Below are positions 1,777 to 63,810 of a DNA stretch of 64,000 nt, piece after piece. The notes below the pieces were generated by a model. It saw nothing but the letters and a program-made list of their open reading frames with translations. It had not been told where the DNA came from and made no database searches. Numbering within the stretch: the stretch's first letter is position 1; each line of letters begins with the position of its first letter. Made by a program: the position numbers and the translations under genes. This stretch comes from an uncultured Eubacteriales bacterium (GTDB lineage: Bacteria; Bacillota; Peptococcia; Peptococcales; SKKY01), in assembly GCA_964622305.1 (NCBI GenBank), contig CAZUPR010000001.1, positions 5,433 to 69,432 on the forward strand, written 5' to 3'.

Positions 1777-1807
1777 TTCAGCCAGATTAATCTGGCTGAA
1801 TTTTTTT
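1777..1807. terminator. Bidirectional rho-independent terminator shared by the tRNA pair and the convergent lipoprotein gene
   Basis: Perfect hairpin TTCAGCCAGAT-TAA-TCTGGCTGAA flanked by an A-run 5' and a T7 run 3'. Confidence 0.8.
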
Positions 1808-2393
1808 ATTCATCTGAGTCAGAATTTTTGTCATATTTGTAATCTATAATTATAAATCCTTCTTCCTCTGGGTCTTTTTCAAAAGTCATTGTAATAGTAG
1901 CTGCTGACTGCCTTTCAGAACTGGTCCCTTCAATAATAGAATATACTACAGCCTTTGCAATCAGGTAGTTTTCATTCTGATAAACTCCTTCCAGGAGCGG
2001 AAGATGATTCTTATCCTGGCTAGTCAAATAACCTGTAAAGAATTCTAAATTATCCGGCAAATCAGTTTCACTCTTAAGCCCAAAAAGATCATAGGCTACA
2101 TCTTGAATACTTTTCTCAGGAGAGAAGTTATTCTTGTAATAAGCTGCAAAAGAAAGCATTTGTTCTTTATCAATAAAAAACTCATGGCCAGTCTCTTCAT
2201 TTACAATGGGATTAAAATAAAAAGCTTCAATTAGCTCCTGTAAGTCCATTAAAAGGTCTTGGTCTGTAATTTCATTGATAACTAAACCACTGCCTTTATT
2301 TTCATTTTCAGGAAGAAGATCTTTTCCGCCAGAGCTGCAGGCTGTAAGTAAAAAAAGTGAAAGGACTATAAGTATCTTACTTGTTTTTTTCAT
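1806..2393 (-). CDS. Hypothetical lipoprotein
   Basis: 195-aa ORF. N-terminal signal with lipobox LLTAC-SSGG. No recognisable catalytic motif. Confidence 0.7.
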   Translation of the reverse strand: MKKTSKILIVLSLFLLTACSSGGKDLLPENENKGSGLVINEITDQDLLMDLQELIEAFYFNPIVNEETGHEFFIDKEQMLSFAAYYKNNFSPEKSIQDVAYDLFGLKSETDLPDNLEFFTGYLTSQDKNHLPLLEGVYQNENYLIAKAVVYSIIEGTSSERQSAATITMTFEKDPEEEGFIIIDYKYDKNSDSDE

Positions 2394-3605: not shown

Positions 3606-4821
3606 TTTCTGCTTCCCTTCTCATTAAATCCATAGCTCTTACAGGCTGAGGGACCGGAATTTTGACTATTGTTTTAGGAGTAGCAACTACATCCATGGGA
3701 AAACCATTTTCACTATATATTTCATTAATAATAAAAGAAAAATCTTCTCCTTCAGGTCCAAAAATCTCCATTTTATCGCCTATTTTAAAATTATTCCTTT
3801 GCTCTATAACTGCCATTTTATTTATAGGGTCATATTCCAAAACCTGACCAGTAAAATCATAAGGTTGGATATAAGAAGAACTGTCAGTAAAGGCAGACTC
3901 CTTATCCATCTCATCAAAATAAAATCCACTTGTATAAGGACGGTGAGAAACCTTATCTAACTCATTGCGCCAATAATTAACATCAAAGTCTTCCTGAGGG
4001 TCGTAGTAATTATCCAAAAGCTTCCTGTAGGCTCTGACGATTGTTGATACATAATAAATACTCTTCATTCTGCCTTCTATTTTCAGACTGTCACTGCCAG
4101 CTTCAATTAGCTTGTTGAGGTGATCAAAGAGACAAAGATCCTGGGAGTTGAAAATATAGGTTCCCCTCTCATCTTCTTCGATAGGATAATATTCCCCTGG
4201 TCTTTTTTCTTCAACGAGATTATAGCTCCAGCGACAGGATTGAGCACATTCGCCCCTATTGGAATCCCTGCCAGCCATATAGTTGCTTAAGAGGCATCTG
4301 CCTGAATAAGAAATGCACATGGCTCCGTGGATAAAGTTTTCGATTTCCATCTCTGTCTTATCTTTTATTTCTCTGACTTCATTTATATTTAGCTCTCTGG
4401 CTAATACCACCCTTTTTATGCCTTGCTTCTTCCAAAAAAGTGCACTCTGATAGTTGGTGCAGTTGGCCTGGGTGCTTAGATGTATTTCAAAATCAGGGAA
4501 GTTTTCTCTGACGTAGTATATTATTCCCGGATCAGCAATTATAAGGGCATCTACACCAATTTCCTGTATCTGTGACAGATAGGTATTTATACCTTTAAAA
4601 TCTTCATTCCGGGGAAATATGTTCATGGTTAAATATACTTTTTTATTTCTTTTATGGGCATAACGGACCCCGGCATCAATTTCATTTAAGGTAAAATTAC
4701 CAGCAAAAGCCCGGAGGCCAAAAACTTTTCCGCCAAGATAAACTGCATCAGCTCCATAATTTATAGCGAATTTTAATTTTTCTATGTTTCCAGCCGGAGC
4801 CAGGAGTTCAACCTTTTTCAT
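3577..4821 (-). CDS. Peptidase U32 family protein (YrrO/TrhP-like, probable tRNA U34 hydroxylation factor)
   Basis: 414 aa. U32 signature ENFIHGAMCISYSGRCLLS. Sits directly downstream of the yrrM/trmR homologue, as in B. subtilis yrrM-yrrN-yrrO. Confidence 0.9.
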   Translation of the reverse strand: MKKVELLAPAGNIEKLKFAINYGADAVYLGGKVFGLRAFAGNFTLNEIDAGVRYAHKRNKKVYLTMNIFPRNEDFKGINTYLSQIQEIGVDALIIADPGIIYYVRENFPDFEIHLSTQANCTNYQSALFWKKQGIKRVVLARELNINEVREIKDKTEMEIENFIHGAMCISYSGRCLLSNYMAGRDSNRGECAQSCRWSYNLVEEKRPGEYYPIEEDERGTYIFNSQDLCLFDHLNKLIEAGSDSLKIEGRMKSIYYVSTIVRAYRKLLDNYYDPQEDFDVNYWRNELDKVSHRPYTSGFYFDEMDKESAFTDSSSYIQPYDFTGQVLEYDPINKMAVIEQRNNFKIGDKMEIFGPEGEDFSFIINEIYSENGFPMDVVATPKTIVKIPVPQPVRAMDLMRREAENDRIRTASY

Positions 4822-10279: not shown

Positions 10280-11332
10280 TCATAAACTTTTTAGAATTAC
10301 TCCACCAGCAAGTAAGATATTATCCTTATAAATTACAATTGACTGGCCCGGGCTTATGGCCCTTTGATTTTCTAAAAAATATACTTCTATCTTATCTTTA
10401 GATAGGTGTTTTACCCTTGCCTGGGCAGTTTTTAAAGAGTATCTGATTTTTACATCATAAATAATATTTTCATCAAGAAGGCTTCCGTCAACCAAATTGA
10501 GCTCATCGGCCAGTAAACCTCCCGAATAAAGGTCCTTGTCCTGACCCAGGTAAAGGGCATTTCCCTCAAGGTTTTTAGAAACAACATAGGCCGGTTCCTT
10601 TAAACTCAGTCCCAAACCCTTTCTTTGACCTATTGTATAAAAAGGCAGGCCCTGGTGCTGACCCAAAAGCTCCCCTTGCATATTATAGACAGGTCCTTTA
10701 GCAAAAGCCTTCTGTCCAATAGATTCAAGTAAGAATTTTTTATAGTCATTGTCTGAAATAAAACAAATTTCCTGACTATCTTTTTTGCGGGCAAGATGCA
10801 GGTCTGCCTTGAGGGCGAGTTCCTTTACCTCTTCTTTGGTATAAGATGCCAGTGGGAAAATAGTTTTGCTAAGAGAAGCCTGATTTAAATAATAAAGAAA
10901 ATAAGATTGGTCCTTACTTAAATCCCTGGCCTGCTTAAGATAGTAAGCATTTTTTTGTGGATCATGATAAAGATCAACATAATGGCCACTGGCCAGGTAT
11001 TGGATATCAAGGTCTTTTACCAGGTCAAAAAAGAGCTTGAACTTTATTTCCCGGTTGCAAACAACACAGGGGTTTGGCGTCAAGCCTTTTAAATAGCTAT
11101 CTGTAAAATAATCAATTACCTTTTCTTTAAATTCTTTTCTGACATCGAATACCAAGAAATCTATTCCTAATTTTTCAGCAACCTGTCTTGCATCCTCTGA
11201 GGCTGCCTGAGATTTATCCTTTTCAAGCATCTGTAAATAGACTCCTGTAACCTCATAACCCGCTTCTTTTAGTAAAAGGGCTGATACTGAACTATCTACA
11301 CCGCCACTCATTCCAAGAGCAACTTTTTTCAT
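10280..11332 (-). CDS. mnmA: tRNA 2-thiouridine(34) synthase MnmA
   Basis: 350 aa. PP-loop GMSGGVDSSV. Conserved Cys residues (NPCVVCN). Confidence 0.95.
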   Translation of the reverse strand: MKKVALGMSGGVDSSVSALLLKEAGYEVTGVYLQMLEKDKSQAASEDARQVAEKLGIDFLVFDVRKEFKEKVIDYFTDSYLKGLTPNPCVVCNREIKFKLFFDLVKDLDIQYLASGHYVDLYHDPQKNAYYLKQARDLSKDQSYFLYYLNQASLSKTIFPLASYTKEEVKELALKADLHLARKKDSQEICFISDNDYKKFLLESIGQKAFAKGPVYNMQGELLGQHQGLPFYTIGQRKGLGLSLKEPAYVVSKNLEGNALYLGQDKDLYSGGLLADELNLVDGSLLDENIIYDVKIRYSLKTAQARVKHLSKDKIEVYFLENQRAISPGQSIVIYKDNILLAGGVILKSL

Positions 11333-12582
11333 TTATTTTCCCTTCTTTTGAAAAATTTATTATTAATTAATTTATCTGGCAAATACTGTTGATCAACCCA
11401 ATTACCCTCATAATTATGAGGATAAAGATAACCTTCACCACCATGAGAACGCAAATGTCTGGGAACCGGGTATATTTTACCATTGGAAATTTCTTTCATT
11501 GAGTAGTTAATACTCTCATAAGCCTGGTTGTTTTTTTTAGCCAGGGCACAGTAGAGGGCTGCATGAGAAAGGGTAATTCTGGCTTCAGGCATTCCCAATC
11601 TTTCAACAGCCTGATAAGCAGCCAAAACAAGAGGCAAAGCCTGGCTGTCTGCCAGGCCAATATCTTCAGAAGCGAAGATTAAAATTCTTCTGGCTATAAA
11701 CAAAGGATCTTCCCCAGCTTCAAGCATAAGAGCCAAATAGTATACAGTTGCATCAGGATCGGACCCTCTCATGCTTTTTATAAATGCTGAGATAACATCA
11801 TAATGCTGGTCGCCACTTTTATCATAAGTAACTGCAGGCTTTTGTATGGACTCCTGAGCAACCTCAAGATCAATCTTCCGGACTCCTTCCTTATCAGGCA
11901 TTGAAGATAATACAGCTGTTTCCAGAGCATTTAAAGCCTTTCTGGCATCGCCGGAAGCAAAATAAACTATATGATCCAGGGCATCACTTTTTAGATCAAT
12001 CTGGAAGTTTCCCAGTCCTCTTTCTTTATCGCTTATTGCCTCTTCTAATATTTCTTTTATATCTTCTTTTTCCAGTTTTTTTATAGGAAAAACATTGAGC
12101 CTCGATAAAAGAGCTGAGTTTACTGAAAAGTAAGGATTTTCTGTTGTAGCTCCTATTAGTGTGATAAGTCCTGCCTCGACTGAAGGAAGGAGAGCATCTT
12201 GCTGAGATTTATTAAAACGGTGGATTTCATCAATAAAAAGGATGGTCTCCTGGCCGTAAAACTTTTTATTGTCTTCAGCCTTGTTTATTATTTTTTTTAT
12301 ATCCTGTACTCCACTGACAACGGCATTGATTTTGTTAAAATCTGCCTGACTGCTATTAGCTATAGCCATGGCAATAGTGGTTTTTCCTGTGCCTGGAGGC
12401 CCGTGAAAAATCATTGACCCCATCTTTTCAGCTTTAAGAAGCCTGTTTAAAAGTTTGCCCGGGCCCAAAATATGGGACTGGCCTTTAATATTTTCTATTT
12501 TTTCAGGCCTCATTCTGTCAGCCAGGGGAGCATTCTTTTTCTTGTCTAAATTACTATAATCAAATAAATCCAAAAAAATCAC
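11329..12582 (-). CDS. rarA: Replication-associated recombination protein A (RarA/MgsA AAA+ ATPase)
   Basis: 417 aa. Walker A GPPGTGKTT, Walker B FIDEIH. The true start may be TTG at 12571-12573, preceded by AGGTGA. Confidence 0.93.
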   Translation of the reverse strand: MIFLDLFDYSNLDKKKNAPLADRMRPEKIENIKGQSHILGPGKLLNRLLKAEKMGSMIFHGPPGTGKTTIAMAIANSSQADFNKINAVVSGVQDIKKIINKAEDNKKFYGQETILFIDEIHRFNKSQQDALLPSVEAGLITLIGATTENPYFSVNSALLSRLNVFPIKKLEKEDIKEILEEAISDKERGLGNFQIDLKSDALDHIVYFASGDARKALNALETAVLSSMPDKEGVRKIDLEVAQESIQKPAVTYDKSGDQHYDVISAFIKSMRGSDPDATVYYLALMLEAGEDPLFIARRILIFASEDIGLADSQALPLVLAAYQAVERLGMPEARITLSHAALYCALAKKNNQAYESINYSMKEISNGKIYPVPRHLRSHGGEGYLYPHNYEGNWVDQQYLPDKLINNKFFKRRENK

Positions 12583-25032: not shown

Positions 25033-27375
25033 TTACTTGATTGCCCTGAAAAAAAGCGAATTTTCCAGATTGTTCTTTTTAACATTTTTTGCAAGGACAA
25101 GATCAATAAAAGAATTTTTTAAAGTATAATTTAGAAAGCCCAGTTCCTCAAAAATTATTATTCCACTTAAAAGTTCCTGCTCAGATAAAATAATATCTTC
25201 TTCTTGATTAAAGAGCTTTGTATAATCTGATAAATCTTGGTGCTCTTTGTCTTTAAAATTTCTTTGCAAAGATAAATATAGTTTTGATAAGAGGTCTCTG
25301 TTTAGCCTCTCTTCTTTTTCTTCTTCCAGAGAATTTTCATAAGTGAAAATTTCTAAGGAAGGATTTATTTCTTTTAAGGACGAGGCTATAAAATCTATTT
25401 TATCTCCTGCAGGAAATAAAAAGTATTGTGTCTGATTAAGAATAATATTTTTATATAAAAAAGTATCTGTAAAGAGAATCTGCCTCTCTTCCAGGAGAAA
25501 GTTTTTTAAGGATAAATAATTTTGCGCAAAAGTGTTGGTACTTTGATAAAAAAGACTGTCTTTTTCTTTAATATCCATCTTTTGGCCTGTTTTAATTGGT
25601 TTATCAGCATATATTATTGCCTTTGAATCTCTTAAAAGATTATAAACTTCATTATACTTTATTTCCTGATATTTTGTAAAATTATTGCCTTCTATATAGG
25701 CAAAGGCTGGAAAAAGGGAATAAATTTTTTCTTCCAGGTTTTTATGATTCTTGCCTTTAAGACCAATAATTTCTTTAACTTCCAGCTGTAAAGTTTTTCT
25801 ATTCTGCCATTCGTTGATTCCCAGATTAAAAAGAAGATTGCCTTGGCAGATATCCTGGCTGTATTCCTTGTAATTAAAATAAACAGCACCAATTTTCCCT
25901 GACTGATCCTGGGCAGTAATCCTTAAATGATCCTTATTTTTACCAATTCTTTGCATACTCAATTTTAAATCATTGGCAAAGGAAAAGAGTGGTTCTGGGT
26001 TGCCTTGCCCAAAGGGTTCAAGATAAGCTAAGTCATTATAAAAATCACAGTCAATTTCGGCAATATTTTCAAAATAAAGATCAACCTCAGTTTTTTCTTC
26101 TAAATCCTTTTCCTCCAAAACTTTGTAAACATATTTATTTAGAGCCTCTCTAAAAGGAATAATATCCTCTTCCAGGAGGGAAAGACCTGCAGCCTGTGGG
26201 TGCCCCCCAAATTCTTGCAGATAATCCTGATTGTTTTCTAAGGCCTTAAAAATATCAAAATTGGCAATACTTCTTCCAGAACCCTTCCAGAGACCTTCTT
26301 GATCCTCAGATAAAAGAATAACCGGCCTTTTAAAATCTTCAACTAAACGAGCAGCAACAATACCAATAATGCCTGCCTGCCAATTTTTATTACCCAGCAA
26401 AATAAAAGGATCCAAAAACAATTGCTTTTCCAGGACAATTTTTCTGGCTTTAAGATAAGTAGAATCAACCAAATCTTTTCTCTTTTTATTTAAGTTAAGC
26501 AGCTCAGTAACTAATTGATCAATCCTGACATGATTATTGGTGGTTAAAAGTTCCAGAGCTAATTCCGGTTTACCCATTCTGCCACTGGAATTTATTACTG
26601 GTCCAAGAAAAAAAGCTATATTTTTACTCTTAACCTGAGAAAGATCATTACTCTCAAGAAGTTTCTTTAAGGCTCTTAAATTTGTCTGATTTAAATATGC
26701 CAAACCTTTTCTAACAATCTTTCTGTTTTCCATTTTCAAATCTACAAGATCGGCAATTGTACCTAGAGTTGCAAGTTGCAAGAGGTCAGCATCTATTTTT
26801 TTTATATTTTCTTCATCCTGGGCTAATGCAAGGCTTAGAAAATAAGCGATGCCAGCTCCAGCTAAATCATAAAAGATCTCTTCTTTAGAAACTTTAGGGT
26901 TAACGATTATAGTTTCTGGCAAAACTTCCCCAGGCAGATGGTGATCTGTAACTATGAAATCCAAGCCCATATTTTTATATTTAGCAACTAAATCTTTAGA
27001 TTTAATCCCACAGTCAACAGTTATTATTAAATTTGTTCCTCTGGTTAGAAGCTCTGCCAAGGCAAGATCATTAAGACCATAACCTTCATTATCTCTTTCT
27101 GGAATATAAGTATCTATCTTTGAATAAATAGCCGAAATAGCCCGGTAAAGAATGGCAGTTGCGGTAATGCCATCAGCATCATAATCACCGTAAATTGTTA
27201 TTTGTTCTTCTTTTTTTATGGCCTCTTTAATCCTTTCACAGGCCTTTTTAACACCATTAAGTAAAAAAGGGTCTGCCAGGGGAAGCTTTTCCGGAAAGAG
27301 AAATTCTTCTAATGAAATATTTTCTGGGCATCTTTTTTGAGCCAGTTCAAGAACTTTTTGGTTTATTTTCTTCAA
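25033..27375 (-). CDS. recJ: Single-stranded-DNA-specific exonuclease RecJ
   Basis: 780 aa. DHH motifs DYDADGITA and VTDHH. DHHA1 motif GGHPQAAG. TTG start. Confidence 0.95.
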   Translation of the reverse strand: MKKINQKVLELAQKRCPENISLEEFLFPEKLPLADPFLLNGVKKACERIKEAIKKEEQITIYGDYDADGITATAILYRAISAIYSKIDTYIPERDNEGYGLNDLALAELLTRGTNLIITVDCGIKSKDLVAKYKNMGLDFIVTDHHLPGEVLPETIIVNPKVSKEEIFYDLAGAGIAYFLSLALAQDEENIKKIDADLLQLATLGTIADLVDLKMENRKIVRKGLAYLNQTNLRALKKLLESNDLSQVKSKNIAFFLGPVINSSGRMGKPELALELLTTNNHVRIDQLVTELLNLNKKRKDLVDSTYLKARKIVLEKQLFLDPFILLGNKNWQAGIIGIVAARLVEDFKRPVILLSEDQEGLWKGSGRSIANFDIFKALENNQDYLQEFGGHPQAAGLSLLEEDIIPFREALNKYVYKVLEEKDLEEKTEVDLYFENIAEIDCDFYNDLAYLEPFGQGNPEPLFSFANDLKLSMQRIGKNKDHLRITAQDQSGKIGAVYFNYKEYSQDICQGNLLFNLGINEWQNRKTLQLEVKEIIGLKGKNHKNLEEKIYSLFPAFAYIEGNNFTKYQEIKYNEVYNLLRDSKAIIYADKPIKTGQKMDIKEKDSLFYQSTNTFAQNYLSLKNFLLEERQILFTDTFLYKNIILNQTQYFLFPAGDKIDFIASSLKEINPSLEIFTYENSLEEEKEERLNRDLLSKLYLSLQRNFKDKEHQDLSDYTKLFNQEEDIILSEQELLSGIIIFEELGFLNYTLKNSFIDLVLAKNVKKNNLENSLFFRAIK

Positions 27376-32084: not shown

Positions 32085-33101
32085 TTAAAATAATTTTTCC
32101 TGCTGACTTCCTTCCTCACAGGGAACCTGTAAGTGATCGTAAGCAAGTTTTGTAGCTACCCTGCCTCTGGGGGTTCTTTTTATAAAGCCAAGCTGCAGTA
32201 AGAAAGGTTCATAGACATCTAAAATTGTATCTGCATCTTCACTGATAGTTGCACTTAAAGTGTCTAGGCCAACCGGACCTCCATTAAATTTATGAATTAT
32301 TGCTTCAAGCAGTTTCATATCCAGTAAATCAAGTCCAAGGGGGTCAATTTCAAGCATATCCAAGCCCTGTCTGGTTATTTCTAAATTAATCAGGCCGTCA
32401 GATTTTACCATAGCAAAATCTCTGATCCTTCTTAAAATACGGTTTGCAATCCTTGGTGTTCCTCTGGCCCGGGAGGCAATTTCGCTGGCAGCTTCATCTT
32501 CAATTGGTGACTGCATTACCTTGGAGCTCCTTTTTACAATTTGAGTTAATTCCTCGGATGAATAATATTCCAGCCTTGAGACAACCCCAAAACGAGCACG
32601 CAGAGGAGAAGTTAAAAGCCCAGCTCTGGTAGTGGCTCCAATTAAAGTAAAGGGAGGCAAATCAATCCTTAGAGAACGGGCGCTTGGCCCCTTTCCTATT
32701 ATGATGTCCAGGGAATAATCTTCCATGGCTGAATATAAAATTTCTTCTATATTTGTATTTAAACGGTGAATTTCATCAATAAATAAAACATCAAATGGCT
32801 CCAGATTTGTTAAAATTGCTGCTAAATCCCCTGCTCTTTCCAAGGCAGGCCCTGAGGTAATCCTTATACTGGAATTGACCTCATTAGCAATTATTGAAGC
32901 AAGGGTAGTCTTACCCAAACCTGGTGGTCCATATAAAAGGACATGGTCAAGGGCATCCCCTCTGATTTTGGCAGCTTCAATATATATTTTCATTAACTCT
33001 TTTATTTTTTCCTGACCTATATAATCATCCAGATACTTAGGACGAATTTCTAATTGATCCTCATCTTTTTGGAGGTCAGGAGAAAGGAGTCTCTCTTCCA
33101 T
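32085..33101 (-). CDS. ruvB: Holliday junction branch migration helicase RuvB
   Basis: Walker [10 protein letters not shown], Walker B FIDEIH. The ORF track starts at GTG 33110. ATG at 33099-33101 (MEERLLSP) has AGGTGA 5 nt upstream. Confidence 0.96.
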
Positions 33102-33110
33102 TCTTTTCAC

Positions 33111-33716
33111 CTATCTGACAGACAATATTTTTAATGCAGCCTTGATAGCTTCTTCCGGGGACAGGCCTTCCTTTTCTTCCAGGAGAGGCATAACTGACAG
33201 TATCTCTTTAGAAGAATAGCCCAGGGCTTCCAGAGTATCAAAAATCACAGAGTTTTTTTCATTGGCAAGAGGCAAAATAAAATCTTGGCCAGCCCCTAAA
33301 TTATGTAAATCATCTCTTTTTGCCAGTTTATCTTTTATATCCAAGATAATCCTTTGGGCAGTTTTTTTACCTATACCAGGGAGTTTAGTTAAAATTGTCA
33401 TATCTTCACTTAGGATAGCCTTAGACAGGCTGGAGCCATCAATAGCAGAAAGTATGTTAATACTTGTTTTTGGCCCTATACCAGAAACTTCATTTAAAAG
33501 ATTAAAAAAAGCCTTATCTTCCCTGGTTAAAAAACCATAAAGGGTCAGTTCATTTTCTCTGACTACCATTTCAGTGTAAAACTCATTTTCACTGCCAATC
33601 TTAACAAAGGCCAATTCCTTTTCTGGCATAAAAAGAGAAAAACCTACATTATTAACTAAGATTAAAATACTCTTATCATCTTTTTCCAGGACCAGGCCCT
33701 TTAAGTATCCAATCAT
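33111..33716 (-). CDS. ruvA: Holliday junction DNA-binding protein RuvA
   Basis: Start supported at MIGYLKG (ATG 33714-33716, ATGA overlap with the ruvC stop). HhH motifs GIGPKT and GIGKKTA. Confidence 0.95.
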   Translation of the reverse strand: MIGYLKGLVLEKDDKSILILVNNVGFSLFMPEKELAFVKIGSENEFYTEMVVRENELTLYGFLTREDKAFFNLLNEVSGIGPKTSINILSAIDGSSLSKAILSEDMTILTKLPGIGKKTAQRIILDIKDKLAKRDDLHNLGAGQDFILPLANEKNSVIFDTLEALGYSSKEILSVMPLLEEKEGLSPEEAIKAALKILSVR

Positions 33717-34210
33717 TTTAAACTCCTGAATCTTATTTGACTTGTATAGAATTGACTGTGGCAAATAGCAATAGCCAAAGCATCGGCAGCATCATCAGGC
33801 TTAGGTATCGTTTCTAATGATAAGATAGTCTTTACCATTTTTTGTACCTGGGCCTTATCAGCCCGCCCATAACCTGCTATAGCTTGCTTAACCTGCAGAG
33901 GTGTATAACCTTCTACTATTAAATCCCTTCTTTGGCCAGCAAGAAGAATAACCCCTCTGGCATGGCCTACACTTATAGCCGTTTTGGCATTAGTATTAAA
34001 GAAGAGCTCCTCAACAGCCATATGGTCAGGCTTATATTCTTCAATAAGCTCAATAAGATCAGAATAAATCTTATCCAGCCTCCTGGTCAAAGGCCAGGAG
34101 CTTTCAGTATAAATACAACCATACTTAAGTGGAAGTAATTTATTGCCATTTTTATCGATGATACCATAACCTGTTGTAGCAGTCCCCGGGTCAATTCCTA
34201 AAATTCTCAT
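33713..34210 (-). CDS. ruvC: Crossover junction endodeoxyribonuclease RuvC
   Basis: 165 aa. MRILGIDPGTATTGYG, with catalytic acidic residues spaced as in RuvC. Confidence 0.95.
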   Translation of the reverse strand: MRILGIDPGTATTGYGIIDKNGNKLLPLKYGCIYTESSWPLTRRLDKIYSDLIELIEEYKPDHMAVEELFFNTNAKTAISVGHARGVILLAGQRRDLIVEGYTPLQVKQAIAGYGRADKAQVQKMVKTILSLETIPKPDDAADALAIAICHSQFYTSQIRFRSLK

Positions 34211-39258: not shown

Positions 39259-42200
39259 TTAAGCAAAAAATGACAATTGATTATTTTCTGGAACTCCGGC
39301 AAAAGTGCCATGGGCAACCAGCGCATCAATAACAGTTTTACTTACCTTGGTTCTGTTACGAAAATCTTCTATCGATTTAAATTCTTTATCTTTAATTTCA
39401 TTTTCTATATTTAGAGCCGCTGTTTGACCAATGCCGGGCAAAGATGAAAAAGGCAGAATTAATTGTTGGCCTTCTATAAGAAATTCCCTGGCCGATGATT
39501 TTTCTAAAGAAATATTCTGGAAGGAAAAACCTCTTTGATACATTTCTAAAATAACTTCTAAAATTGTAAGAGATTTTGCTTCTTTTGGTGTAGCCTGATT
39601 GCCTAAAGCATTGATTCTTTTTATTTCTCCTTCAACCCCATCCTGTCCTTTGATAGCAATTTCTGCATCAAATTCTGATGATCTGACCGTAAAATATGTA
39701 GCATAAAAAGCTAAAGGATGGTGAATTTTAAAATAGGCAATCCTAAAGGCCATCATTACATAGGCAACTGCGTGAGCTTTAGGGAACATATATTTTATTT
39801 TGTTACAAGAGTCAATATACCAGGCAGGAACTTTATGTTCCTTCATTGCTTCTTCATATTCTTCCTTGAGTCCTTTACCTTTTCTCACATCTTCCATTAT
39901 TTTAAAGGACATAAGAGGATCCATTCCCTTATTTATCAAATAAATCATAATGTCATCTCTGGCAGAAATAGCTTCAGAAAGGCTGCATACCTTGTTCCTA
40001 ATCAGATCTTGAGCATTGTTAAGCCATACATCAGTTCCATGAGAAAATCCACTAATACGAACTAAATCAGAAAATTTTTCTGGCTTGGTATCATCAAGCA
40101 TCTGGCGAACAAACCTGGTTCCAAATTCAGGAACGCCCAAAGTTTGTTTGGTCGAGAAAAGCTCCATTACGTCCGGATCATCTAAAGAGATTTCCATGGC
40201 CCTAACTCCTGTAATGTCCTCAAGCATTTTGATTACTGTTGGGTCATCATGGCCCAGTATATCAAGCTTGATTAAATAGTCATGTAAAGAATGGAAATCA
40301 AAGTGAGTGGTTATTATCTCTGAATCAACCATTTCTGCCGGCCTTTGCAGGGGAGTAAAATCAGATGCTTCTTTACTTGTAGGTACGACAATCAAGCCAC
40401 CAGGGTGCTGACCTGTTGTCCTTTTAACCCCACTGCAACCTTTTATTAATCTGTTTAATTCAGCAGAATTATAGTAAATGTTTCTTTCATCTAAGTAGTT
40501 TTTCACATAACCGAAGGCAGTTCTTTCTGCAATTGTTGAAATTGTGCCAGCTCTGAAAACATGATCTGAGCCAAAAATTTCTTCAACATATTTGTGGGCA
40601 CTGGCCTGATATTCACCTGAAAAGTTCAAATCTATATCTGGTACCTTGTCTCCTTCAAAGCCAAGGAAAACTTCAAATGGAATATCAAATCCATTTTTAT
40701 TTAATTGGCTGCCACAAGAAGGACAGGTTTTTTCTGGCAGGTCTGCTCCAGAACCATACTGAGAACTATCAAAGAATTCACTAAAGTAGCAAGAAGGACA
40801 AATATAATGGGCTGGCAAGGGATTAACCTCTGTTATACCTGTGAAGGTAGCTACCAATGAGGAGCCAACAGACCCCCTTGACCCAACCAAATAACCATCA
40901 TCATTTGATTTTTTAACCAGCTTTTGCGCTATCAGATACAAAACAGCATAGCCATTATTAATAATTGAATTTAATTCTTTATCAATTCTTTTAGCCACTA
41001 TTTCTGGAAGCTTTTCGCCGTAGATGCTGTGGGCGCCTGCAAAAGTCATTTGACGAATTTCTAAATCTGCCCCTTCAATTTCCGGGGTATGAAGCCTGTC
41101 AGGTATTGGCCTTATTTCTTCAATTAGATCTGCAATTTTATTGGTATTCTCTACCACAACCTCATAGGCTTTATTTTCGCCCAGATAGGCAAATTCTGCC
41201 AGCATCTCTTCTGTTGTCCTGTAAAAAAGGGGCGGTTGATTATCAGAATCCTGATAACCCTGGCCGGCCTGGATAATTCTTCTGTAAATTTCATCCTCTG
41301 GGTTTAAAAAGTGAACGTCACCGGTAGCAATAACCGGCAGCTCGAGTTCATGGCCAATTTCCAGAACCTTCTTATTTATGTTTTCTATATCCTTTAAGGA
41401 TTTTACTATTCCATTTCTGATCATAAATTCATTGTTGCCCAGGGGCTGTATTTCCAAAAAATCATAAAATGATGCGATTTCTTTTAATTCTTCTTCATCT
41501 TTTTGATCAATTATGGATCTTATCAATTGGCCAGCTTCACAGGCTGATCCATAAATTAAACCATCCCTGTACTCCTCCAGGAGTTCAAAAGGAATCCTGG
41601 GAACTTTTTTATAGTGTTTTAGCTGCGACTCTGAAATTAAATGATAGAGATTCTTTAAACCTTTTCTATTCTTAACCAGGATAATAAAATGATAGCTTTT
41701 ATTATCTCTTAAGGCGTAGGCTTCTACTCCATAAATAATTTTAACTCCATATTTTTGGCCAGCAAAAAAAGCATCAGGAAAAGCCTGAACTACACCATGA
41801 TCAGTTATAGCCAGGGCTTTGTGCCCCCATTGGGCAGCTCTTTTAACATAGTCAGCAACTGGCGTCATAGCATCAGTTTTGCTCATATTAGTATGGAGAT
41901 GAAGTTCAACCCTCTTAACCTGAGATAAATCCTTCTTATCTTCGAGCTCAGTTTGCAGATAATTTTTGACCATAAGAATATATTCCCTGGCAAACTGATC
42001 ATACTGCACATTTCCTGAAAACTTGTAGTAATTGTCTTTTTTAAGGTCATCCAGAATAGAAAGTCCTTCTTTTTGATCCCTGATAATTTTACAGGTGTAG
42101 GATGCGGTGGAATCATTTATTAATATGTTTATTAGGAGCTTATTGTTTTTAAGCTCCCTGCTGCTTATATCAAAGATTCTGCCTTCTACAAGAACATTTT

Positions 42201-42864
42201 TCTCTTCTTCTCTTAAGTCAAGCAAACTTTTAACTGGCCCCTGATGAAGAGACAGTTTTCTTGTCCCTCTTTTTTTATCTTGTGCCGGTTTCTTTTCCTT
42301 CACAAGGCTTTCATTTAATTCTATCTTCGGGAAAAAATCTTCAAGTTTGCCAACAGCAGAAAGATCTTCAAGATCCTCATTTAGCTCAAAAACAATCTCA
42401 AAATCTTCCTTTTCTGTCAGAATCAGTCTTTCCTCCAGAAGATCTTTTACCTTTTTATTTTTTAAATATTTATAGGCCCAGGAAGAACCTGTGATTATTT
42501 TTATGAGTCCCTCGTCTTCTAAATATTCAACATTTATTTTTTCAAGGCAGGATCTTAAGACAGGTGCCTGATCGTCCAGGAGCCTGCAAAAAATTCCTTT
42601 CATTCTCTCCTGGTCACAGAGACAAGGTCCAGAAGCTACGGGCATGAGATTAATTCCACTAACTTTGGGTAATTTTTGCAAGAGGAATTCTTCAGCTTCT
42701 TTTAAAAGTTTTTTACTAAAGGGACTTTTTGAAAAAAAATATATTTCCCAGGTATTTTCAACCTGGGAAACAGTAAGCTTGCATATATCAATTTCTTTTA
42801 AGAATGCAGAAATATGACTCTGGTCATTTTCTGAAAACAATTCCTGAGGAAGTTTTTTATACAT
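39259..42864 (-). CDS. polC: PolC-type DNA polymerase III alpha subunit, lacking the 3'-5' exonuclease insert
   Basis: 1201 aa. N-terminal and OB regions. PHP motifs (VELHLHT, ITDHG, YGVE, GDVHF). Zn module CPSC...CPSC. Palm motifs GSRGSVGSS and DIDLNF. C-terminal HhH. No DxETTG or HNAxFD exonuclease motifs anywhere. Confidence 0.93.
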
Positions 42865-44557
42865 TTTTAAAATAATCCTTTACTTTTTCTATAACTAAGT
42901 CAATTTTTAAGTCTTCAGAGTTTTCATTGCTTCTTTCTTTAAATTCAACCATGCCTTCATGAATCTTTTTACCAACAGTTATTCTCAAAGGATAACCAAT
43001 TAAATCAGCATCATTAAACTTAACACCAATTCTTTCCGGCCTGTCATCTAAAACGGCTTCTATTCCAGCTTCAAGCAAGTCCTTATATAGTTTTTCTGCA
43101 GCTTCAAATTGCTCCTGATCTTTGGCCTGAACAGGAATTACTAAAACTTGCCAGGGTGCAATGTTTTTAGGCCAGATAATGCCTCGGTCATCAAAGTTTT
43201 GTTCAACACAAGCTGACATAGTCCTGGAAACACCAATTCCATAACAACCCATTAGCATAAACTGTTCTTTACCATTCTCATCCAGATAAGTGGCCTTTAG
43301 GCTCTCAGAATATCTGGAACCAAGTTTGAAAACTTGTCCCACTTCGATCCCTTTGGCAAAGGAAAGTTTGCCACCACAAGCCGGACAGGAATCTTCTTCT
43401 GTCACTTCTCTAAGGTCATGAAAGATTGCCTCAGGAAAATCTCTTTTTACATGGGCATGCAGGTAGTGGTAACCCTCTTCATTAGCACCTACAACCGCAT
43501 CATCCATATATTCTACTTCTTTATCAGCAAGAACCTTTATCCCCTTAATTCCTATAGGAGAAATATAGCCTGGAATGCAGGAGAAAATTCTTTGAATTTC
43601 CTCTTCCTCGGCCTTGTCCAGAAAATCTGTTTTTAATACTTTTTGCAACTTAATTTCGTTTAGTTCCCTGTCCCCTCTTAAAACAACAACCACGGTCTCC
43701 TCTTCAGTCTTATAGACTAAAGTTTTAATGGTCATTTCTTGTGGAACTTGCAAGAATTCTGCCACGTCATCAATGGTCCTCTTATCAGGTGTTTCTACTT
43801 TTTCTAAAGCTTTTTCAGGTCCAATCTCTTTAACTGGAGTCACGACTTCTGTAATTTCGGTATTGGAAGCATAGGAACACTCCTGGCAATAGGCAATAGT
43901 AGCCTCACCATTTTCTGCCAGAACCATAAATTCATGGGTATCATCGCCACCAATGGCGCCAGAATCTGCCTCAACAGGTCTGAAATTTAGGCCCATTCTG
44001 GAGAAAATTTTATTATAGGCTTCATACATTTGATCATAGGATTTATCAAGGCCTGCCAGATCTTTATCAAAAGAATAAGCATCCTTCATGATAAATTCAC
44101 GGCCTCTCATAAGACCAAATCTTGGCCTTCTCTCATCCCTGTATTTATTTTGTATTTGGTAAAGATTCATGGGTAATTGCTTATAGGATCTTATCTCGCC
44201 TCTGGCAAGATCTGTAATAATTTCTTCGTGGGTTGGCCCCAGGCAAAAGTCTCTGTTATGCCTGTCTTTTAAGCGGAAGAGCTCATCTCCATAAATATCC
44301 CAGCGCCCAGATTCTTCCCAAAGCTCGGCAGGCTGAATTATTGGCAAAAGGACCTCTTGAGCCCCAGCCTTATCCATCTCCTGACGGACTATTTCTTCTA
44401 TTTTTTTAAGAACTCTCATCCCTGCTGGCAGATATGTATATACCCCAGCTGCACTTCTTCTGATAAAACCTCCCCTGATCAGAAGCTGATGACTGATTAT
44501 TTCTGCCTCAGCCGGAACATCTCTCAAAGTTGGTAGCAAAGATTTACTGATTCTCAT
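42857..44557 (-). CDS. proS: Proline--tRNA ligase (bacterial type with INS editing domain)
   Basis: 566 aa. Class II motifs ([26 protein letters not shown]). Overlaps polC by 8 nt and ispG by 14 nt. Confidence 0.97.
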
Positions 44558-61948: not shown

Positions 61949-63028
61949 CTAAACGATTTTATTTTTTAATTTATAGACATAGGCCAAAACCTCAGCTACT
62001 GCCTGAAACATTTGGCCAGGAATTTCTTGCCCTATCTCTACATTATAATACAAAGTTCTGGCTAATGCCTTGTCTTCATACAAAATAATATTATTTTCTT
62101 TGGCTATTTCCCTTATTTTCAAGGCAACATAGTCCTGCCCTTTGGCAATTACCTGGGGTGCATTCATTCCACTTTCATATTTTATAGCTACAGCAAAGTG
62201 CGTGGGGTTTGTAATAACAACGTCAGCAGAAGGAATTTCCTGCATCATTCTGCTCATGGCCATCTGCCTTTGCCTTTCTTTAATCTTACTTTTAATTAAA
62301 GGATCCCCTTCAATATTCTTATATTCATCTTTAATTTCCTGTTTTGACATTTTTTGGTTTTCCATATAATCATATCTTTGAAAAATAAAGTCCATTATGG
62401 CAAGAATCAAAAGGAAAATCAGAACCCGCCAGATTATGGCAAAAATTAACTCCCCAATAAAAAGTAAAGAAACCTGAATGTCCATGTCCATAAATTGCGG
62501 AAAAGTCATAGTCCGGTTTTTAATAACTGTATATGCCAGATATAGTATGCCTGCTATCTTAAAAATAGATTTAAAAAGCTCCATTAGAGTTCTTTTTGAA
62601 AAGATTTTTTGAAAACCTTTTATAGGATTTATCTTTTCCAGTTTCATTTTTAAAGGTTCAGGAGTAAGGAGAAAGCCAATTTGCACATAATTGGAGATAA
62701 GACCAGCCAGCATACTTAAAAGCATAACCGGAAGAACAATTCTGGCCAGCCAGAGAAGTACAGTTATATAAATATGCTGAACTATTTCAACAGTCAAAAC
62801 TCTGTTAGAATCAAACTGAAAAAAGGTCACAAAAATAGCCTGCATATTTTTTACCATATCAGACATAAAAAATCTGAGAAAAACTAAGCTGACTAAAAGT
62901 ATCACAGCAGAGTTTATCTCCATGCTTTTTGCTACCTGCCCTTTTTTTCTGGCATCTTCCAGTTTTTTGGGGGTAGGCTTTTCAGTTTTCTCTCCTGAAA
63001 ATAATTGCAGGTTTACATAGTATCTCAT
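61949..63028 (-). CDS. flhB: Flagellar type III export switch protein FlhB
   Basis: 359 aa. NPTH autocleavage site in VVITNPTHFAVAIKY. Confidence 0.97.
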   Translation of the reverse strand: MRYYVNLQLFSGEKTEKPTPKKLEDARKKGQVAKSMEINSAVILLVSLVFLRFFMSDMVKNMQAIFVTFFQFDSNRVLTVEIVQHIYITVLLWLARIVLPVMLLSMLAGLISNYVQIGFLLTPEPLKMKLEKINPIKGFQKIFSKRTLMELFKSIFKIAGILYLAYTVIKNRTMTFPQFMDMDIQVSLLFIGELIFAIIWRVLIFLLILAIMDFIFQRYDYMENQKMSKQEIKDEYKNIEGDPLIKSKIKERQRQMAMSRMMQEIPSADVVITNPTHFAVAIKYESGMNAPQVIAKGQDYVALKIREIAKENNIILYEDKALARTLYYNVEIGQEIPGQMFQAVAEVLAYVYKLKNKIV

Positions 63029-63810
63029 TGGGCCAACACCTTTATCATAGTATATATATCTATAAAGGATCTTTCAAAAAAAGCACTCAGAATGTATATA
63101 TAAAGAGGAATTATTACTAGAGAAAGGATAAAACCAATCCCAATTTTAAGAGGCATCCCTATCATGAAAACGTTCATTTGTGGTACAGTCCTGGCAATAA
63201 TACCCAAAATAAAGTCAGTCGCAAAAAGAGCTCCTACATAGGGAAGGGCAATTTTTAGAGCTATTACAAAAAGATTACTGGTTGCATAGATCACAAAATT
63301 AATAGTTTCCATTTCCACCGTAAAATTTCCCAGAGGTATTATCTGATAGGATTTCATTAAAGCATCTAAAAGTAAAATATGCCCATTCATTGATAAATAA
63401 AAAAACATAGTTAAAAAGTACTTGAAAGTACCCATTACAGGCATTTGTGCTCCAGATTGGGGGTCAACAACGTTTACTATCCCAAAGCCCATTTGCATAT
63501 CTATCATTTGTCCTGCCAGGTTTATTGAAGCAAATAAAAGTGAGGCTATATAACCTATCGAAAGTCCAATAGCAAACTCAGCTAGCCCATAAATAAAAAA
63601 AGACAGTAAGGATGAATCAACGCTTAAAATGCCGGGGGTGCTTAAAGTGGGTACTACAACAATACTGATAAGCAAAGCAAGGCCGGCTTTCATCATTGAT
63701 ATAACATTCTTACTGCTAAATAAAGGGGCGATGATAAGAAAGCCCATTACTCTCAGAAATGTCATCATATATACTGGAAAGTTTTCATAAAAAATCTGTA
63801 GGTATTCCAT
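63025..63810 (-). CDS. fliR: Flagellar export apparatus protein FliR
   Basis: 261 aa, polytopic. Overlaps the flhB start by 4 nt. Confidence 0.94.
   Translation of the reverse strand: MEYLQIFYENFPVYMMTFLRVMGFLIIAPLFSSKNVISMMKAGLALLISIVVVPTLSTPGILSVDSSLLSFFIYGLAEFAIGLSIGYIASLLFASINLAGQMIDMQMGFGIVNVVDPQSGAQMPVMGTFKYFLTMFFYLSMNGHILLLDALMKSYQIIPLGNFTVEMETINFVIYATSNLFVIALKIALPYVGALFATDFILGIIARTVPQMNVFMIGMPLKIGIGFILSLVIIPLYIYILSAFFERSFIDIYTMIKVLAQ

Follow-up and report, generated by a model that had tools for sequence, protein, structure and literature searches.

A PolC replicase gene without the inserted DEDDh exonuclease domain, and with an intact PHP metal site, in an uncultured lineage with Clostridia-type relatives

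Bacillota depend on PolC as their essential replicase, and the enzyme is targeted by an antibiotic (ibezapolstat). The DEDDh exonuclease (Exo) domain inserted into it is usually taken as its defining feature. A recent survey defined PolC by this RNase_T insertion (PMC11963600), a criterion by which Exo-less PolCs are silently dropped. Timinskas, Balvociute, Timinskas & Venclovas (NAR 2014) put the share of PolCs without Exo at 6% (PMC3919608). These are found in Clostridia and Negativicutes, the exception being one extra copy in Thermotogae, and all of them belong to PolC+DnaE1 systems (PMC3919608). Their domain order is NTD-OB-PHP-Pol3-HhH, with a conserved PHP metal site and a PHP domain that lacks the Exo insertion. 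An engineered counterpart is the delta-N delta-Exo construct of G. kaustophilus PolC (PDB 3F2B, 3F2C, 3F2D), which carries a Gly-Ser linker and is devoid of the N-terminal domain. In a polymerase branch other than PolC, M. tuberculosis DnaE1 proofreads by its PHP domain (PMC5636811), and Thermus DnaE does likewise.

The window analysed here, a 64-kb stretch of DNA from an uncultured lineage, contains the polC gene whose features are listed in Table 1. Its product scores 1531.5 bits against NF001688 (cut-off 873) and 1387.5 bits against TIGR01405 (cut-off 1043.45), both of which are NCBIfam PolC equivalogs. The NF001688 match is split into two stretches, the second of which pairs aa 387-1200 with profile positions 611-1444. 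The match to 3f2b is a single stretch over aa 208-1200 (E=0). Pfam at E<=1 reports PHP, DNA_pol3_alpha, finger, HHH_6 and NI domains, and the PolC order is kept: NTD and OB fold precede PHP, and the Pol3 core comes after it, with HhH at the C-terminus. The gene is the chromosomal, orthologous polC of its host, an Exo-less variant of Clostridia-type Bacillota.

The individual domains were assigned from Pfam, alignments and an AlphaFold (AF2) model. PF14480 (DNA_pol3_a_NI) matches aa 18-67 (25 bits; cut-off 22), and the N-terminal domain is folded in the model (pLDDT 75-89). A disordered linker (aa ~167-207, pLDDT <50) comes next, and then five long beta-strands at 220-304 (pLDDT ~86-92). The alignment with 3f2b, which begins at aa 208, pairs this region with the OB domain, and PF01336 is present in homologues. 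PF02811 (PHP) covers aa 320-467 (E=3.8e-34). In the Pol3 core, the catalytic Asp triad consists of D743, D745 and D868 and the PDIDLNF motif is invariant. The four cysteines of the Zn module are invariant in both the 12- and the 66-sequence alignment, as are Q1196 and F1200 of the clamp motif in the former. The parts needed for clamp-tethered polymerisation (NTD, OB fold, Asp triad, Zn module, HhH and QLSFF) are all intact.

Table 1 Features of the polC locus in the window (residues in ORF numbering)
Feature	Position (nt)	Strand	Remarks
polC ORF, 1201-aa PolC	39259..42864	minus	ATG start; 3606 nt
PolC N-terminal domain, aa 1-~165	42370..42864	minus	PF14480, AF2 model
OB fold, aa ~220-305	41950..42207	minus	AF2 model, 3f2b alignment
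PHP domain, N-terminal part, aa 318-387	41704..41913	minus	ligands H322, H324, D331, H356, E381
Junction, the insertion point of the canonical DEDDh Exo, aa 384-391 (ALRDNKSY)	41692..41715	minus	alignment, AF2
PHP domain, C-terminal part, aa 388-~600	41065..41703	minus	ligands H392, C442, D516, H518
Pol3 core (palm, thumb, fingers), aa ~601-1110	39535..41064	minus	PF07733, PF17657
Zn-binding module C689, C692, C714, C717	40714..40809	minus	alignments
Second, clade-specific 14-aa deletion, between L909 and G910	40135..40140	minus	PolC comparison
Tandem helix-hairpin-helix duplex-binding domain, aa 1123-1194	39283..39498	minus	PF14579 HHH_6, E=2e-11
C-terminal beta-clamp-binding motif QLSFF, aa 1196-1200	39265..39279	minus	regex match
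proS, immediately upstream of polC	42857..44557	minus	stop overlaps polC start by 8 nt

A sequence-only reading of the window had described a PolC that is about 230 aa short, with the gap at nt 41689-41730, exactly where canonical PolC carries Exo. The shortfall holds, since PF00929-bearing canonical relatives have lengths of 1382-1467 aa. The codons of D387 (nt 41704-41706) and H392 (nt 41689-41691) fall inside the interval, and H392 leads into FIILVKN. An alignment of 12 sequences, in which the Exo+ PolCs are those of Phosphitispora, Desulforamulus, Acetivibrio and Anaerosalibacter, likewise places the insertion at this point: Exo+ PolCs have ~205 extra residues at the junction, including the DxETTG and HNAxFD motifs. 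The reported lack of Exo I and Exo III motifs was reproduced by a regex search for Exo I/II/III, with no match anywhere in the window PolC. The profile check for RNase_T/DEDDh came out the same way. RNase_T (PF00929) has no match in the window PolC with Pfam at E<=1, and a custom Exo HMM, built from four PolC Exo domains, has none in the six frames of the 64-kb window.

Between Y383 and H392 lie 8 residues, where Exo+ PolCs have 195-214 and the other Exo-less ones 8-27. In place of the canonical insert, the junction forms a tight beta-hairpin with a two-residue turn. The flanking strands span 374-385 and 388-396 in the AF2 model (pLDDT ~90-96), whose numbering is that of the ORF minus 1, and the model is confident across the junction. 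The whole DEDDh domain has been cut out of the PHP barrel, in which a tight hairpin now joins strands three and four. In the engineered G. kaustophilus construct, Exo was removed at the same point of PHP. The window PolC aligns with 3F2B through the junction at 52% identity, and its AF2 model superposes with a TM score of 0.90 (normalised to the target). In contrast to the construct, the window PolC is natural, retains the N-terminal domain and has an even tighter junction.

Among 195 relatives, 88 PolCs are Exo-less and the other 107 are Exo+. The count of 88 excludes L028 and L035, which are non-PolC ORFs with broken PHP motifs. The missing Exo is a whole-domain absence common to dozens of homologues and no chance pattern. 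On a neighbor-joining (NJ) tree with Kimura distances, Exo-less PolCs are scattered over the PolC tree. In 100/100 bootstraps, 6-9 changes of Exo state are required, and one group of Exo-less PolCs falls together with Exo+ sequences at 100% support. Such a scatter, which takes no fewer than 6 state changes in any bootstrap, points to recurrent loss of Exo in PolC.

The best named relative of the window PolC is 67% identical, and its PolC clade takes in Clostridia and Syntrophomonadaceae MAGs. A close relative with a name was not found for the host; its nearest named AlaRS matches are from a Eubacteriales MAG (80%), Peptococcaceae MAGs (65%) and Thermanaerosceptrum (60%), the MAGs being of Clostridia type. 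The novelty implied by the sequence-only reading does not stand: Exo-less PolCs of Clostridia and Negativicutes were reported in 2013-14 (PMC3919608), which answers that reading's own caveat on earlier documentation. Many anaerobic Clostridia have the variant, and the window PolC is a further example of a published architecture and no discovery. It shares domain order, uninterrupted PHP, conserved metal site and probably also a Clostridia-type Firmicutes host with the PolCs described by Timinskas et al., and differs from them in its origin from an uncultured lineage and in two structural details. The window protein and two relatives (P0001 and P0002) have the shortest junction seen, 8 residues, compared to 11-27 in the remaining Exo-less PolCs. 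The 14-aa segment of the fingers, in addition, is missing only in these three among 197 PolCs.

The Exo-less gene could in principle stem from an assembly collapse, be a pseudogene, or be an accessory second polC in a genome that also has a normal Exo+ copy. The contig ERZ4240871 NODE_295 has a low coverage of about 4.9x, and the Thermotogae copy is a known case of an extra Exo-less PolC (PMC3919608). This explanation is nonetheless very improbable. Four assemblies, each from a different sample (ERZ4240871, SRR8925714, SRR8925724 and SRR12132972), agree in the polC sequence at 3606/3606 nt, which argues against an artefact. An 87%-identical orthologue (L087) has the same junction, and there are the 88 Exo-less homologues. 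The frame is uninterrupted, and the dN/dS of polC relative to L087 is ~0.06 overall, 0.04 in PHP and 0.025 in Pol3; strong purifying selection acts on polC. The position is syntenic with canonical polC. The locus has the ancestral order fla/che-sigD-rpsB-tsf-pyrH-frr-uppS-cdsA-dxr-rseP-ispG-proS-polC, of which uppS-cdsA-dxr-rseP-ispG-proS-polC is conserved gene order in Bacillota. An apparent split of fliR in the ENA gene calls was dismissed, as the window has one intact 261-aa ORF.

The window PolC can be regarded as real, namely a natural Exo-less replicase of functional type, and as neither an artefact nor a pseudogene. The sequence-only reading had come to the same view, now borne out by the four identical assemblies, the dN/dS, the ancestral locus and the AlphaFold model. 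It was also right that the remainder of the protein is intact, as seen from the Asp triad, the Zn module, the clamp motif and the uninterrupted frame. Conservation and the dN/dS of 0.06 suggest that the protein is active as a polymerase and probably serves as the essential replicase.

All nine PHP metal ligands, which the sequence-only reading had listed as seemingly present, were located by alignment: H322, H324, D331, H356, E381, H392, C442, D516 and H518 (HHDHEHCDH). Their columns are invariant in the alignment. The window PolC thereby agrees with the 'active PHP' signature HHDHEH[C/H]DH (PMC12926913). Like the window PolC, 88/88 genuine Exo-less PolCs have an intact nonamer, but the 107 Exo+ clostridial PolCs have it equally intact; its presence is therefore no proof of compensation. 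The DnaE1 PHP exonucleases of M. tuberculosis and T. thermophilus have the same signature in a polypeptide without DEDDh, but belong to the other polymerase branch and have another domain order. The window PolC is about 18-20% identical to 5lew and 7pu7. In C. thermocellum PolC, C669Y, a substitution of the PHP cysteine ligand, causes a roughly 30-fold mutator phenotype (bioRxiv 10.1101/2021.07.30.454558). C669 corresponds to C442 of the window PolC, an equivalence of columns that was checked by alignment. The C. thermocellum enzyme is a clostridial PolC that still has its Exo domain, and the measurement concerned the mutator phenotype, not exonuclease chemistry. The mutant backs a role of PHP in fidelity, although the effect of the mutation could be structural and not catalytic. 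The literature search found no biochemical test of a PHP exonuclease in any PolC.

We consider it reasonably probable that this Exo-less, orthologous PolC is proofread by its PHP metal centre, and that redundancy lies behind the repeated loss of Exo. In this scheme, 3'-5' proofreading would most likely be carried out by the trinuclear metal centre of the PHP domain itself, and this site is the best candidate for proofreading in Exo-less PolCs generally. An intact PHP site alongside a DnaQ-type Exo in clostridial PolCs would amount to redundancy, hence loss would be tolerated, and Exo would have been lost repeatedly because of it. The heading of the sequence-only reading, 'no intrinsic proofreading exonuclease domain', stands as far as DEDDh is concerned; its wording goes too far if PHP is an exonuclease. 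Tighter constraint on PHP as a form of compensation was considered and rejected. At matched identity of the Pol3 core, PHP is conserved slightly less well, and no better, among Exo-less PolCs (identity of 0.56-0.61 in Exo-less pairs versus 0.62-0.66 in Exo+ pairs). No residue separates Exo-less from Exo+ PolCs; one weak column differs (position 591, T versus L), from which no conclusion is drawn.

E. coli epsilon docks on the PHP domain of DnaE, and by this established precedent a separate DnaQ-like (DEDDh) exonuclease would dock on PolC and proofread in trans, with the PHP site left to a structural or other role. Stand-alone DnaQ homologues number >3 per bacterial proteome on average (PMC12926913), and the PHP site is under no extra constraint in Exo-less PolCs, both of which suit such an arrangement. 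Candidates are missing from the neighborhood, however. The custom HMM found no Exo-like ORF in the 64-kb window, and PF00929 is unrecorded for the called genes of the source contig over ~78 kb. At ~30 other Exo-less loci, the ±10 kb around polC are free of Exo-like ORFs, and no split-off Exo gene was found beside polC in 84 loci. Under the criteria of PMC12926913, a separate DnaQ subunit is assigned to no Clostridia. The PHP ligands are kept at all nine positions in 88/88 Exo-less PolCs, whereas the site is typically degenerate where a lineage depends on DnaQ. Proofreading by a trans-acting DnaQ is unlikely.

Quite unlikely, too, is a PolC without any proofreading that is confined to a restricted role, while a DnaE1 with active PHP replicates most of the chromosome or edits in trans. 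This possibility was raised by Timinskas et al., whose Exo-less PolCs all come from PolC+DnaE1 genomes and who noted that some Clostridia have DnaE1 alone (PMC3919608); trans proofreading between two replicases has been described for B. subtilis (reference in PMC12926913). Neither the window nor ~78 kb of the source contig contains a dnaE gene. A restricted role fits poorly with purifying selection at the level expected for an essential replicase (dN/dS 0.06) and with the retained clamp motif and ancestral locus. PHP ligands that are not used would be free to decay, yet they are invariant. Proofreading by the PHP centre remains the preferred reading.

Published accounts of the phenomenon go back to 2013-14, so the known picture is refined but unchanged. 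The window PolC is an unusually compact case, contributed by an uncultured lineage, and the survey of its relatives adds evidence for recurrent loss. Natural Exo-less PolCs pose the question of whether the ancestral PHP metal centre alone can keep a PolC replisome accurate. A bolder answer, held tentatively and with somewhat less than even confidence, is that Exo was lost independently at least 6 times, and only where the PHP site is perfect, and that PHP may be a sufficient proofreader of PolC and the DEDDh insert dispensable. If true, the clade of the window PolC, P0001 and P0002 (1192-1201 aa) would represent the most reduced natural PolC, and its hairpin-tight junction and 14-aa fingers deletion would provide a ready-made minimal enzyme for tests of PHP proofreading in the PolC branch.

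The polC gene of the window has an ATG start on the minus strand and encodes a protein of 1201 aa, the length given in the sequence-only reading. It scores above the cut-offs of both NCBIfam PolC equivalogs, NF001688 (1531.5 bits, cut-off 873) and TIGR01405 (1387.5 bits, cut-off 1043). Besides PHP, the Pfam matches comprise DNA_pol3_alpha, DNA_pol3_finger, HHH_6 and the PolC N-terminal domain, while no RNase_T/DEDDh match is found in the protein even at E≤1. The NF001688 match is split in two, and in its second stretch aa 387 meets profile position 611. The window PolC was aligned with seven other short and four canonical PolCs. At the junction, precisely after …GVEAYALRD, the canonical proteins carry ~205 additional residues that include the DxETTG and HNAxFD motifs of the exonuclease (Exo) domain. 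The junction had been assigned to nt 41689-41730, and the codons of D387 (41704-41706) and H392 (41689-41691) fall within this interval. The Exo I and Exo III motifs are missing as claimed: no Exo I, II or III motif occurs anywhere in the protein, and a custom HMM derived from the Exo domains of four PolCs has no match in any frame of the entire 64-kb window, this ORF included. The observation is confirmed, and its structural interpretation is supported.

Residues 208-1200 align in a single unbroken stretch with the G. kaustophilus PolC construct 3F2B, from which the Exo domain was taken out for crystallisation. An AlphaFold2 model (residues 2-1201, 66-sequence alignment) has a mean pLDDT of 84.4, with the PHP-domain blocks mostly at 84-98. 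A Foldseek search with this model returned 3F2B at the top (TM 0.90 normalised to the target), followed by the full-length E. faecium PolC 9QPC. In this model the junction is a predicted two-residue turn joining two long beta-strands. This fits the Exo insertion point seen by cryo-EM, which lies between strands three and four of the PHP domain (PMC12592400).

An assembly artefact, a pseudogene or a second polC copy is effectively excluded. Four assemblies from four samples (ERZ4240871, SRR8925714, SRR8925724 and SRR12132972) share the 3606 nt of polC without a single difference. The orthologue P0001, encoded on the related locus L087, has equal length and the same junction at 87% protein and 82% nucleotide identity. 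Between the two genes, dN/dS (Nei-Gojobori, with dS near saturation) is ~0.06 overall, 0.04 in PHP and 0.025 in the polymerase core. The gene order is fla/che operon-sigD-rpsB-tsf-pyrH-frr-uppS-cdsA-dxr-rseP-ispG-proS-polC. Since this is the classical Bacillota arrangement, polC is the orthologous chromosomal copy and not an extra one. Its first 8 nt (42857-42864) also form the end of proS, an overlap that suggests translational coupling in the conserved dxr-rseP-ispG-proS-polC string. Together with the intact motifs listed below, these data bear out the earlier view of a natural delta-Exo PolC, intact in its remainder.

Features of the window and of its PolC
Feature	Position	Strand	Remark
polC ORF	39259-42864	-	
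PHP domain	aa 320-467	-	Pfam match
14-aa deletion	40135-40140, between L909 and G910 of PolC	-	N-terminal part of Pfam finger domain
Catalytic aspartates	D743, D745, D868		intact
Zn module	four cysteines		intact
Clamp motif	QLSFF, C-terminal		intact
Replication/repair genes in the co-oriented block of polC	11329-12582, 25033-27375, 32085-34210		MgsA/RarA-like AAA+ protein, RecJ, RuvCAB
195-aa ORF	1806-2393	-	downstream of shikimate kinase; no Pfam match at E≤0.001
fliR	63025-63810		single intact 261-aa ORF

In ENA gene calls of the same contig (locus L086, 6069-6850), fliR appears as products of 123 and 136 aa. A frameshift was rejected given the intact ORF in the window, and the split is a gene-calling discrepancy.

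The Exo-less architecture is already documented, as it was reported by Timinskas et al. (NAR 2014, PMC3919608), who discussed its possible meaning. In that survey, 6% of PolCs lack the insertion; all are from Clostridia and Negativicutes except one extra Thermotogae copy, and every one comes from a genome with PolC and DnaE1. The window PolC is an unusually compact further case of the kind described in 2013-14. About half of its top 120 database relatives are likewise short (1190-1270 aa) and without PF00929, among them Heliorestis, Candidatus Formimonas and MAGs of Desulfitobacteriaceae, Peptococcia and Dehalobacterium, and Exo-less PolCs are also found in many GTDB species representatives. 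A PolC survey of 2025 concerned with ibezapolstat susceptibility retained only sequences with the RNase_T insertion in PHP (PMC11963600) and therefore left out Exo-less PolCs by definition. Those outside this criterion include PolCs from MAGs labelled Oscillospiraceae (e.g. loci L029, L043 and L047). Further Exo-less PolCs come from MAGs with the labels Candidatus Wallbacteria, Deltaproteobacteria and Ignavibacteriales (locus L073, proteins P0112 and P0118). PolC is not expected in these phyla, and its presence there could stem from horizontal transfer, mis-binning or wrong labels.

On an NJ tree of 76 representatives (878 shared PHP, Pol3 and HhH columns), the distribution of Exo requires seven changes of state, and 6-9 in every one of 100 bootstrap replicates. 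One Exo-less group nests with Exo-containing sequences at 100% support, and the residual junction varies by group from 8 to 27 residues. Exo is homologous and sits at the same insertion point wherever present, so repeated loss is the economical reading of this tree, which was built with a simple distance method and has short internal branches. The window PolC clusters with sequences of uncultured Clostridia/Eubacteriales MAGs (100% bootstrap). Syntrophomonadaceae MAGs join it in a 16-sequence Exo-less group of the full-set NJ tree, but this wider grouping has only 13% bootstrap. The AlaRS of this uncultured organism has its closest matches in a Eubacteriales MAG (80%), Peptococcaceae MAGs (65%) and Thermanaerosceptrum (60%). 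The window PolC, P0001 and a further homologue, P0002, have the shortest junction of all PolCs surveyed and, among 197 PolCs, are the only ones with the 14-aa deletion. Other PolCs have roughly GISEKELLSNVGTY at this site, where the model's pLDDT is <50.

Across window 1-64000, the minus strand carries every one of the 53 ORFs of 150 aa or more, and each 2-kb bin has a negative GC skew. In PolC-containing Bacillota, such extreme co-orientation of genes with a single replichore is typical, and it is evidently kept in an organism with an Exo-less PolC.

The window polymerase is complete and conserved without a DEDDh domain. Proofreading in trans by a DnaQ appears unlikely: there is no Exo-like match in the 64-kb window, no PF00929 is recorded across ~78 kb of the source contig, and no Exo-like ORF turned up when ~30 Exo-less polC loci were searched to ±10 kb. 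DnaQ homologues nevertheless average more than three per genome. Of the replication and repair proteins encoded in the co-oriented block of polC (see table), none is a 3'-5' DEDDh exonuclease. A PolC that does not proofread at all, with DnaE1 performing most of the work or editing in trans, likewise appears unlikely; this possibility was put forward by Timinskas et al. (PMC3919608).

Proofreading probably resides in the PHP centre, by analogy with M. tuberculosis DnaE1, for which 3'-5' proofreading by this centre is reported (PMC5636811). All nine metal ligands are present, as had been proposed (H322, H324, D331, H356, E381, H392, C442, D516 and H518), and match the 'active' signature HHDHEH[C/H]DH (PMC12926913). 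The nonamer is intact in 88 of 88 genuine Exo-less PolCs. Indirect experimental support comes from C. thermocellum PolC, in which C669Y, at the equivalent of C442, causes a ~30-fold mutator phenotype. However, the nonamer is also intact in 107 of 107 Exo-containing clostridial PolCs sampled. Compared with these, the Exo-less set shows neither relatively higher PHP conservation nor group-specific substitutions, which cautions against over-reading PHP. No published report of a biochemical test of an Exo-less PolC was found. The simplest evolutionary picture is redundancy: with two candidate proofreaders present in clostridial PolCs (PMC12926913), Exo could be lost. Whether PHP alone can act as the proofreader of a PolC replisome is a real question, and one already posed in the literature.
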